DNA from: Strigamia acuminata
Lineage: Eukaryota
Assembly (NCBI GenBank): GCA_949358305.1
Contig: OX442314.1
Location: forward strand, 18,290,001 to 18,354,000
DNA: 64,000 bases
Reading direction: 5' to 3'
Made by a program: the position numbers and the translations under genes. The notes beneath the pieces are model-generated. The model worked only from the letters and a program-made list of their open reading frames with translations, had not been told where the DNA came from and did not search any database. Shown here one piece after another: positions 42,001 to 45,000 of this stretch (within the stretch, counting starts at the first letter, position 1; each line of letters begins with the position of its first letter).

Positions 42001-45000
42001 TGAAGAACTCTGCCATGGTCATGTAAGTTTATACGAAAATAATTAGCTAAAAAAAAAAACTTAAATTTAAATATCTGAAAAAAAAAATTAAGAATATACT
42101 GATTTATTGACGCCATGGACAGTGTGTCTGTTATTAAATCGTTTCCGACTTTCCCCGTTGATTTTAAGCACAATTTTTGTTTTTATTTGTTATTTTTCGA
42201 GACTTTTAAAGAATTTTTAAAGTTTTTTTCAAATTTATCTCTTCGTATTAATTACATAAGTGGGGAGAAGTTATCAAGGCACGTGGTATGTGCTTGACAT
42301 TGCGTATGGTGAAAATCCTTGATGTTAGTTAGACAGATGAGCGATTTGATGAGGGTGAGTCAGGTGTCTTGAAGGCGTCCCTGGAAGCAGGACGCGAGGA
42401 CATTGGCTCATCAGCGTTTTCATAATACTCGAGTTGATGCATCGCCTGAAATGACGACGAACCAAACCAGCTTGCACCTCGGTTAGAAGTCACAAGTTGC
42501 ACGTTAGAAGTTCCACGTAGGGACAGGTACCATCCCTCCCACAATCCCCTCTGAGGAATGCTGTTTGCCCATTTAACCCTTTGGGATTTGTAAAACGCTC
42601 GAAGGACGCGCTTTTTCCTATTCCACTCAATTTCCCGAGCGAGGATTCCATCATGAGGTCAGTGACATTTGAAAAAATGTATTTTAAGTTTAATAATTCG
42701 ATGGGAATCGGTGGTGGGAGCAAAGAGTTTTCTCGGTTTGAGGTGGGTTCGGCAACTCGTTGGTTTCACGCGGTTTCACCACAGGAGCTGGTGCTAGGGT
42801 TGGGTAAGAATGTAAAAATTCAAAATGGTTTCGTGATGTAACTCTTGTGGCTGTTGAAGCCTGTTTGGATGATTATAAAATAATGATTTCATTACTACTG
42901 TCAAGCTCGAAGAGATTTGGTATTTGTGCCAGCTGATTCCATACTCCTTGGGAATTTTACGCTGCTTGCTTGTACTTGTAGTTAAGCAAGCAGCGTTATA
43001 TAATTAGCGCTCTTTCTTCAAGGTCTGAAAATTCAGGGAAGCAGGCAAAGTAAATACCTGTTTGAAATATTTCCTGCTGATAAGTTTTAAATTTTCGAGG
43101 CGAAGAAATGTGGAAAATAAATAAATAAACTTTTGTGGGATTTTTTTTTGTGTGGTTTGTTTTGGTTTTGATTTTTTTGTTTATTTTGTTGACAGGACTA
43201 TTCAGGATCCAGCCAGTCAACGGCTGACATGGTACAAACCGCCATTTTCCGTCTTGGTGATCAAAAAAGTGCGGGATGCAGCTGTTATACAGCCGTTTGT
43301 TGATTTGGTCAATTGGCTCATAACGGTACATCATTATTTTTTTCAATTTAGTCAATTAATTTTATTAATTTTTATTTTATTTTATTTATTCAGGCTAAAC
43401 GGATGATGGTGTTTGTGGAATCATCAATTATGGATGATCACATTCTATCTGGCAGTCAGCTGTTTCTGCCAGTCAAGGATAAACTAATGACTTTCAAAGA
43501 AGGCAAAGATGATCTCACTGATAAAATTGATTTTATCATTTGTTTGGGAGGCGATGGAACACTTCTCTATGCATCTTCCTTATTTCAAGTGCTTACATAA
43601 TTTGTTTATTTGTAAATATTGTAATTATTAAAGAGAAAAAAATTGTTTTTATTTCAGCAAAGTGTTCCACCTGTTATGGCATTTCATTTGGGTTCTTTGG
43701 GATTTCTCACACCGTTTGAATTTCATAATTTCGAAGAACAAGTGACAAATGTTCTGGAAGGTAAAAAAAAAAAAACTCGGTAGATTCACCATCTTGAAAA
43801 TTAAAGCAATTTCAACATTGGTTCAATCAAATCCGTTTATCGTTTTTCTAATCTATATACACATGTTCAAGTTATATAACTTAGATTGAGTAAGAATTAA
43901 ATTTAATTTAATTTAATCAATGATTTATTTTGACAGGTCACGCTGCTCTCACTTTACGCAGCAGATTGAGATGTATCATTTTGCGAAAAAGCGAAGAAAA
44001 GTCTAGTAAACCACCCACAAATCTTTTAGTTCTTAATGAAGTTGTGATCGACCGTGGGCCGAGCCCTTATTTGTCCAATATCGATCTGTTTTTAGATGGA
44101 AAACTCATTACTTCTGTCCAAGGAGATGGTCTGTTATCAAATTAGATAAATATTCCCTTCACTTTCTCACACTTTTGTTTATTTACAGGTTTGATCGTCT
44201 CCACACCGACAGGTAGCACTGCCTACGCTGTCGCTGCAGGGGCTTCGATGATCCACCCGAGTGTTCCAGCTATAATGGTCACGCCTATTTGTCCTCATTC
44301 ACTGTCGTTTCGGCCTATTGTCGTTCCGGCGGGTGTAGAGTTAAAGGTATGAAAGAAATTGGAAAGAAGGGTGTTTTAGGAAGAAAGTAAAAGTGGAAAA
44401 AGAAAGAAATGAAAATAAAATTTTAAATGTCATCAGATTATGGTGTCACCTGACTCCAGGAACACAGCTTGGGTTTCGTTTGACGGGCGCAAGCGACAAG
44501 AACTGTCTCATGGGGATAGGTAGGTGGTGCCGGGATATTATTAGCACCATCTAGCCACCATTTAATAATCTGATTAGTGAAAACTTAGTGCAATGTTTTG
44601 TGTTGTTTTTGTGTTGTTTAAAGTGCATGATTTGCAGATTATGTTAAATCCTGATGCGCGAAATACAGCATGGGCGTCGTTTGATGGTCGTTATCAACAG
44701 GAGCTTGTCGTTGGCGATAGGTGTGTTTTGTCGCAAACTTGTTTGTGGCCGGTGATGGGAATTGCAGTTGCTTAATTCGTAGAAATTTTAAACCAAAAAT
44801 TAATTTGGTGGCTGGGTTGTGCTTGTGTTCAATCGGGAGTTTGGTTCGGAAAAGTAATGTTTGTTTTTATGCCTCTTGTTTCTTCTTCTTCCAGTCTTCG
44901 CGTCACTACATCTATTTATCCCGTTCCATCCATCTGTTCGCAAGATCAAATAAGTGATTGGTTCGACAGTTTAGCCGAATGTCTTCATTGGAATGTGAGA

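Follow-up and report, generated by a model that had tools for sequence, protein, structure and literature searches.

NAD kinase (NADK) provides, to our knowledge, the only known route to NADP(H). It is commonly regarded as a single cytosolic enzyme which is regulated through its tails and by phosphorylation. The NADK gene described here lies on the forward strand of a stretch of 64,000 nucleotides (nt) of the Strigamia acuminata genome (contig OX442314.1, positions 18,290,001 to 18,354,000; the whole stretch is hereafter the window, and all coordinates below refer to it). This gene carries two adjoining, homologous exons of 83 nt, A and B, which very probably are used as alternatives. In the RNA of a close relative, one or the other of them is spliced between common flanking exons, and the same is likely to occur in the species of the window. 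The products would be two enzymes that differ only in a stretch of 27 residues of the C-terminal beta-sandwich.

With respect to splicing, the closest described systems are the exon clusters of the Kassiopeia/WebScipio type. According to the accessible part of PMC3923563, these consist of adjoining exons of equal length, equal phase and recognizable homology, of which one enters each transcript, and the window presents the same organization in adjacency, length, phase and homology, with the use of one exon per transcript being likely. The same part of that source reports that in Dscam, Mhc and 14-3-3 zeta the choice of the exon is set by conserved competing intron structures. The NADK gene of the window is unlike those three genes in that no conserved structure was found, and the either-or condition would be enforced at the level of the reading frame by the length of 83 nt. 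With respect to the protein, human cytosolic NADK (9CR3, 9CR4, 8KGC and 3PFN) presents the domain order and the motifs of the window gene, but it is known with one version of the segment only, which is nearer to A. The nearest counterparts of the pair itself are orthologous isoforms in RefSeq (Myzus, Penaeus, Centruroides, Tachypleus and Bacillus rossius), which share with the window the 27-residue segment between ..VELK and SLRVT.., the signatures of A and B and the equality in length. These are automatic isoform predictions that carry no comment, and none of the named records belongs to the species of the window.

The exon pair and its use in RNA

Exon A (44437..44519, + strand) and exon B (44638..44720, + strand) are separated by an intron of 118 nt (44520..44637, + strand), with no exon in between, and both are located between the same two partners. 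The common upstream partner is the exon that encodes STPTGSTAY and ends in ..VELK (44189..44346, + strand), and the common downstream partner is the last coding exon (44895..45099, + strand), with the stop codon at 45097-45099; the former was delimited by Pfam, contigs and frame, and the latter by contigs and frame. Each member of the pair is preceded by AG and followed by GT, starts in phase 0 and ends after two bases of a codon. In coordinates, lengths, splice sites and both encoded peptides, our analysis reproduced exactly an earlier description of this locus, made from the letters alone (the original prediction). When aligned with each other, A and B agree in 54 of 83 nt and in 19 of 27 amino acids (BLASTP E = 4e-15), with 8 codons that differ in residue and 11 that differ only synonymously. 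No third copy was found in the 64-kb window by tblastn, where the next best match had an E value of 0.7. Exon A bears the ancestral-type Arg and His at two diagnostic columns that are presented below, and exon B bears Gln and Val. As had been proposed, A is the copy nearer to vertebrate NADK, since it matches the human-type segment at 22 of 27 residues and B matches it at 19 of 27.

The argument from the reading frame, which the original prediction had put forward, was borne out by translation of the joined exons. Inclusion of both A and B reads ..GD-R-L-C-stop, with the stop three codons into B, and skipping of both exons shifts the frame and leads to a stop 20 codons further on. Used singly, A and B each yield a single open frame of 354 codons plus the stop, from 43196 onward. 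Adjacency, equal length and phase, homology, and retention across species under selection, which are among the features by which tandem-duplicate mutually exclusive exons are recognized, are all present in this pair.

The evidence at the RNA level comes from the assembled contigs of seven runs (X1 to X7) of one close relative; such contigs drop rare forms and hold no information on tissue or level. The contigs differ from the exons of the window by about 1-11%, and they skip every examined intron at GT..AG (two joints were aligned ambiguously), which indicates an origin from spliced RNA. All seven runs have exon A joined to both of its neighbours. Exon B is joined alone to the same two flanking exons in two runs, X2 (study P2) and X3 (study P1), in the form of a 132-nt contig in which exon B, with 1 mismatch, is flanked by 22 nt from the upstream exon and 27 nt from the last one. 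Both runs also present a parallel contig of 132 nt with exon A and identical flanks, and such pairing is how an either-or choice appears in word-graph assembly. As a rough guide only, the word depth of B versus A was 32.6 versus 76.7 in X2 and 72.1 versus 156.5 in X3. All four junctions that the original prediction had singled out for counting (44346>44437, 44346>44638, 44519>44895 and 44720>44895) are present in the contigs of the relative, as joints and not as tissue counts. No A>B joint was observed among the contigs of the seven runs, which lose rare forms; that each exon appears joined alone agrees with the earlier claim that only one of them can be used. Between the window and the relative, exon B differs in 1 of 83 nt and exon A in 2 of 83, and the six other coding exons differ in 67 of 986 nt.

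Distribution and divergence among arthropods

A search with the frame of exon B gave 88 matches, 15 of which were nearer to B than to A. The latter are found in short genomic frames of the form ..Q/exon/DR.V.., which corresponds to an exon bordered by AG and GT, and one B-nearer match is named 'NAD kinase [Portunus trituberculatus]'. An exon-upstream query retrieved mostly exon-sized fragments; 21 of its best 120 matches reach the segment, and all of these are nearer to A. In addition, scanning of metagenome contigs with an alignment built from 13 B-like frames recovered eight loci (L001 to L008). In three other organisms (L002/L003, L005/L006 and L007), an A-type exon is followed by a B-type exon, each of 83 nt and with AG/GT sites, and then by the last exon. 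A and B are separated by an intron of 696 nt in L002, of 54 nt in L005 and of 34 nt in L007, compared with 118 nt in the window. In all four genomic cases (the window, L002, L005 and L007), A joined to B meets a stop within three codons of B. With regard to the remaining loci, L001 is an intron-free contig with an aphid-type segment, an mRNA-like record of the B form in frame between the GSTAY and HWNV exons; L004 holds B and the last exon, with no A within its 381 nt of upstream sequence; and L008 is a different, intron-free NADK.

The pair is also present in the RefSeq annotation. Isoforms of equal length that differ only in the segment were found in Centruroides sculpturatus (X2 with A, X1 with B), Tachypleus tridentatus (X2 with A, X1 with B), Penaeus indicus (X1 with A, X2 with B), Myzus persicae (X2 with A, X1 with B), Bacillus rossius (X9 with A, X10 with B) and Bemisia tabaci. 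The two Myzus isoforms show 10 residue differences, all of them within positions 381-405, inside the segment. Both types were also observed in Anabrus, Nezara and Acyrthosiphon, and only B-type forms were seen for Halyomorpha, Cryptotermes and Schistocerca. The B segment of Cryptotermes, ..GRYQQEMHVGD, is close to that of the window; B is the only type in 3 of 3 Cryptotermes isoforms listed and in all 8 named isoforms of Tachypleus gene 1. Both exons are included one after the other in the models of Aphis glycines, Timema, Ranatra, Petrolisthes and Apis cerana; although apparently misannotated, these models confirm the tandem arrangement. Two peculiarities of other NADK records can be mentioned here. 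In the Drosophila willistoni record, two tandem NADK paralogues are fused; both have A-like segments, and no B is present. The models of Littorina saxatilis and Mactra antiquata repeat three times the stretch that precedes the segment, as a result of a model or assembly artefact or else of a tandem exon duplication.

In a tree of 47 segments built on 27 columns, all 23 B-type rows were placed on one side of a branch with support 96/88, and the A-type rows grouped with the segments of vertebrates and molluscs. The proportion of non-synonymous differences was 0.03-0.17 between A exons, 0.05-0.26 between B exons, and 0.20-0.36 between A and B within a species; the proportion of synonymous differences was at least 0.6 throughout, that is, saturated. 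Low non-synonymous change next to saturated synonymous sites is what was expected from the earlier suggestion that both copies are under selection.

Two columns split the classes without overlap. At column 20 (human R387), all 17 A-type rows and all 6 outgroup animals have R, and the B-type rows have Q (21/23) or H (2/23). At column 25 (human H392), H is shared by all 17 A-type rows and by 4 of 6 outgroup animals, and B-type rows present V, I, A, P or M. At columns 3 and 7, it is B that keeps the outgroup states (L and A, respectively), where arthropod A has V and S. The original prediction had pointed to a swap of RKRQ for RYQQ between the exons of the window. The change of R to Q, at column 20, extends to the whole class; that of K to Y, at column 19, does not, as N is found there in both classes. 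The second class-wide change, from H to an aliphatic residue at column 25, had gone unmentioned. Taken from these alignments, the simplest reading is that one tandem exon duplication would have occurred in an early arthropod, before the split of chelicerates and mandibulates, and that the copies then diverged in a complementary way.

Probable functional difference and the choice between the exons

By alignment to the solved human NADK, the segment corresponds to I368-D394. It is therefore situated inside the C-terminal beta-sandwich, which comprises residues 238-402 of the human enzyme as given in the accessible part of PMC12052686. AlphaFold models of the Myzus pair presented the same pattern in both forms: the end of a strand, a loop, a strand (AWVS), a D-G turn, a strand (R..QEL), a loop, and then the strand SLRVTTS. 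The predicted local distance difference test (pLDDT) gave block values of 78-89 over the segment in both forms; the mean for the models as a whole is lowered to 59.9 by the disordered tails. The accessible text of PMC11759006, PMC12052686 and PMC10087438, whose figures and supplements may show them, does not mention the residues of the segment.

Several points weigh against the reading of A and B as alternatives that yield two different enzymes. The NAD+ contacts of human NADK that are listed in the accessible part of PMC11759006 (D184, F211, L212, N284, E285, D314', T325, Y327, A330, H351' and R430) are all outside the segment; with the segment at human 368-394, the earlier proposal that the swap lies near the substrate site is not supported by this list. 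In the literature searched, no measured functional difference between the A and B isoforms was found. All the RNA data are assembled contigs of the relative, and none comes from the species of the window itself. Furthermore, exon B is not in the contigs of five of the seven runs, each of which presents one continuous A contig; since contigs drop rare variants, this does not show that B is absent from those runs. Double inclusion of A and B is suggested by the sequences of two RefSeq forms, A. pisum X8 (..HGD-RLC) and Centruroides X7 (..HGD-RLWFR), so the splicing step is not perfectly exclusive in other arthropods. Finally, the tree has 27 columns, 15 of its 23 B-type rows were labelled by the motif itself, and the labels were taken from gene order in 8 species only (A upstream and B downstream in all 8).

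Considering the replacement in B of the Arg and the His equivalent to human R387 and H392, it is likely that the A and B isoforms would differ in regulation, oligomer behaviour or kinetics. Among the alternatives, the one that survives best is that both isoforms are real but equivalent as enzymes, the pair being kept through an expression divided by tissue or stage. We regard it as possible, though on the doubtful side. Two columns fixed differently between the classes, from chelicerates to insects, are unexpected for interchangeable copies, and A keeps the Arg of all six outgroup animals and the His of four of them; at the same time, equivalence would fit the identical predicted secondary structure and confidence of both forms, the assembly of B in some runs only, and the fact that no substrate contact given in the accessible part of PMC11759006 falls in the segment.

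A particular form of functional difference is suggested by POS5, the mitochondrial NADH kinase of yeast (3AFO). It resembles B, as it reads ..DGIPQQDLDVGD.. with Q and V at the diagnostic columns, and it reads QQDLDVGD in this region. It is unlike the window gene in being a distant paralogue, represented by one aligned sequence, and Q and V may simply be the state outside animals. This likeness is one weak lead for the idea, raised in the original prediction, that the pair could tune the use of NAD or NADH, and it does not amount to evidence for a preference of the B isoform for NADH. We consider it rather improbable that the B isoform, with Gln and an aliphatic residue as in POS5, would have gained a different substrate preference, product inhibition or tail-dependent regulation, and that the pair would constitute an arthropod-old switch by which tissues set their supply of NADP(H) through splicing.

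Another aspect to be discussed is how the choice between A and B is made. In the mechanism that we propose, the exclusivity of the protein products of this gene would rest mainly on the length of 83 nt. As this is not a multiple of three, the A-only and the B-only forms would be the sole productive mRNAs, and transcripts with double inclusion would end up truncated or degraded. Steric hindrance, as another conceivable cause of exclusivity, is implausible in the window, where at 118 nt the A-B intron suffices for splicing, and in L002 (696 nt); it is plausible in L007 (34 nt) and in L005 (54 nt).

A candidate stem was identified between a left arm at 44543..44560 (+ strand) and a right arm at 44806..44823 (+ strand), in which 15 Watson-Crick and 2 G-U pairs are formed out of 18. 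It is present in both the minimum free energy and the centroid folds, and it is the best ungapped stem in the region. The choice could mainly be set by this RNA structure, which would loop out B and place the donor of A beside the last exon, with the reading frame as a back-up; competing intron structures do control other arthropod exon clusters, as stated in the accessible part of PMC3923563. We judge this explanation unlikely. The stem is marginal, with 9 of 200 intron shuffles reaching its score, the region as a whole folds with z = -1.59, and no stem matching that of the window was found in L002, L005 or L007, in which the best stems lie elsewhere. When intron-exon duplexes of the window were folded, no pair stood out (z from -1.7 to +2.2).

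Complementary stretches of other kinds were observed in two of the metagenome loci. In L005, a 23-nt stretch of exon B (5160-5182) is 87% complementary to an intron element located 511 nt downstream (5694-5716); this is the best stem of its region, and 0 of 15 shuffles reach its score. In L002, a 13-nt intron element (1128-1140) is complementary to the NTAWV-coding stretch both of A (502-514, 13/13) and of B (1281-1293, 12/13), a layout such as would be expected of a selector based on competing pairing. Both complementarities are leads, and they do not define a common mechanism.

That exon B could be a rarely used, functionless duplicate, either splicing noise or a decoy that lowers the productive mRNA, is very improbable, because B alone keeps the frame, is intact with AG/GT in every genome examined, is the sole form among many annotated isoforms (Tachypleus gene 1 and Cryptotermes), shows low non-synonymous change against saturated synonymous sites and differs from the relative in 1 of 83 nt, even though B contigs were assembled in 2 of 7 runs only and at lower depth, and forms of double inclusion with an early stop are annotated in an aphid and a scorpion.

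Gene layout and significance of the pair

The NADK gene was identified on the + strand from stop-to-stop frames and Pfam, and the exon boundaries were set from the RNA contigs of the relative together with the splice sites; AG/GT sites are present at all NADK coding exons from 43196 on. The gene contains, all on the + strand, a coding exon at 43196..43325 (spliced contigs, AG/GT and open frame), the exon with the GGDG motif at 43394..43588, a coding exon at 43658..43760 (spliced contigs and frame), and the exon with NEVVIDRG at 43937..44128 (Pfam, spliced contigs and frame), followed by the STPTGSTAY exon and by the pair already described. The GGDG exon, also supported by spliced contigs and frame, matches PF01513 with 27.3 bits (cut-off 25.5), and the STPTGSTAY exon at 44189-44346 matches PF20143 with 79.7 bits (cut-off 23.7, E = 2e-22). 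The NAD kinase motifs GGDG, NE(V)V(I)DRG and the glycine-rich GSTAY, named as in the accessible part of PMC12052686, are all visible in the reading frames of the gene, and the C-terminus resembles that of Blattella germanica.

Upstream of 43196, two alternative 5' coding exons were found. The first (41886..42022, + strand) ends at 42022 and is followed by GTAAGT, its given start being that of the open frame and its true 5' end not being fixed; the letters 41993-42022 are matched without mismatch by a loose contig end of the relative, which runs on into 43196. The second (42521..42657, + strand) ends at 42657, also without a fixed 5' end, and a second loose contig end matches 42626-42655 with 4 mismatches and equally runs on into 43196. 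Since both 5' exons are joined to 43196 in the contigs of the relative, the NADK gene also makes alternative N-terminal tails.

At the other end of the gene, just 3' of the stop (45100-45246), 145 nt of the window are replaced by 80 other letters in the transcript of the relative, so that a block of the 3' untranslated region is swapped. Downstream of NADK, the minus strand presents long open frames at 48265-49134 (289 amino acids, acidic and serine-rich) and 49226-49555 (109 amino acids), which probably belong to a neighbouring gene, and a tRNA-Asp (GTC) is located at 50569-50640 (- strand; Rfam 60.5 bits, also found by ARAGORN). The G+C content is 0.43-0.46 in the blocks 22001-26000 and 1-4000 of the window, compared with the usual 0.30-0.37.

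The Drosophila catalogue of mutually exclusive exons reportedly published by Hatje and Kollmar in 2013 could list a fly NADK pair. Our literature searches on NAD kinase/NADK and mutually exclusive exons, on CG33156 and on insect splice variants found no published description of the NADK exon pair. NADK is absent from the text supplements of two human catalogues of such exon pairs (PMC9741552, PMC5740500), and PMC11282837 presents NAD(+) kinase only as a differentially expressed transcript. The original prediction knew of no description of the pair, which holds for the literature searched; the RefSeq isoform annotation of other arthropods, on the other hand, already contains it. The NADK pair is thus present in public isoform annotation but undiscussed as far as our searches reach, and it combines a known kind of splicing with a central metabolic enzyme and an unusually deep conservation.

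The finding is of relevance for annotation, given that the five gene models with both exons in a row, from Aphis glycines to Apis cerana, appear to include both of them wrongly. With regard to the enzyme, the isoform pairs differ at only about ten residues, and the two fixed replacements, of Arg by Gln and of His by an aliphatic residue, draw attention to positions of animal NADK for which no role is discussed in the accessible text of the structure papers. That the pair has been kept from chelicerates to insects suggests a long-standing need of arthropods for two versions of the catalytic C-terminal domain.

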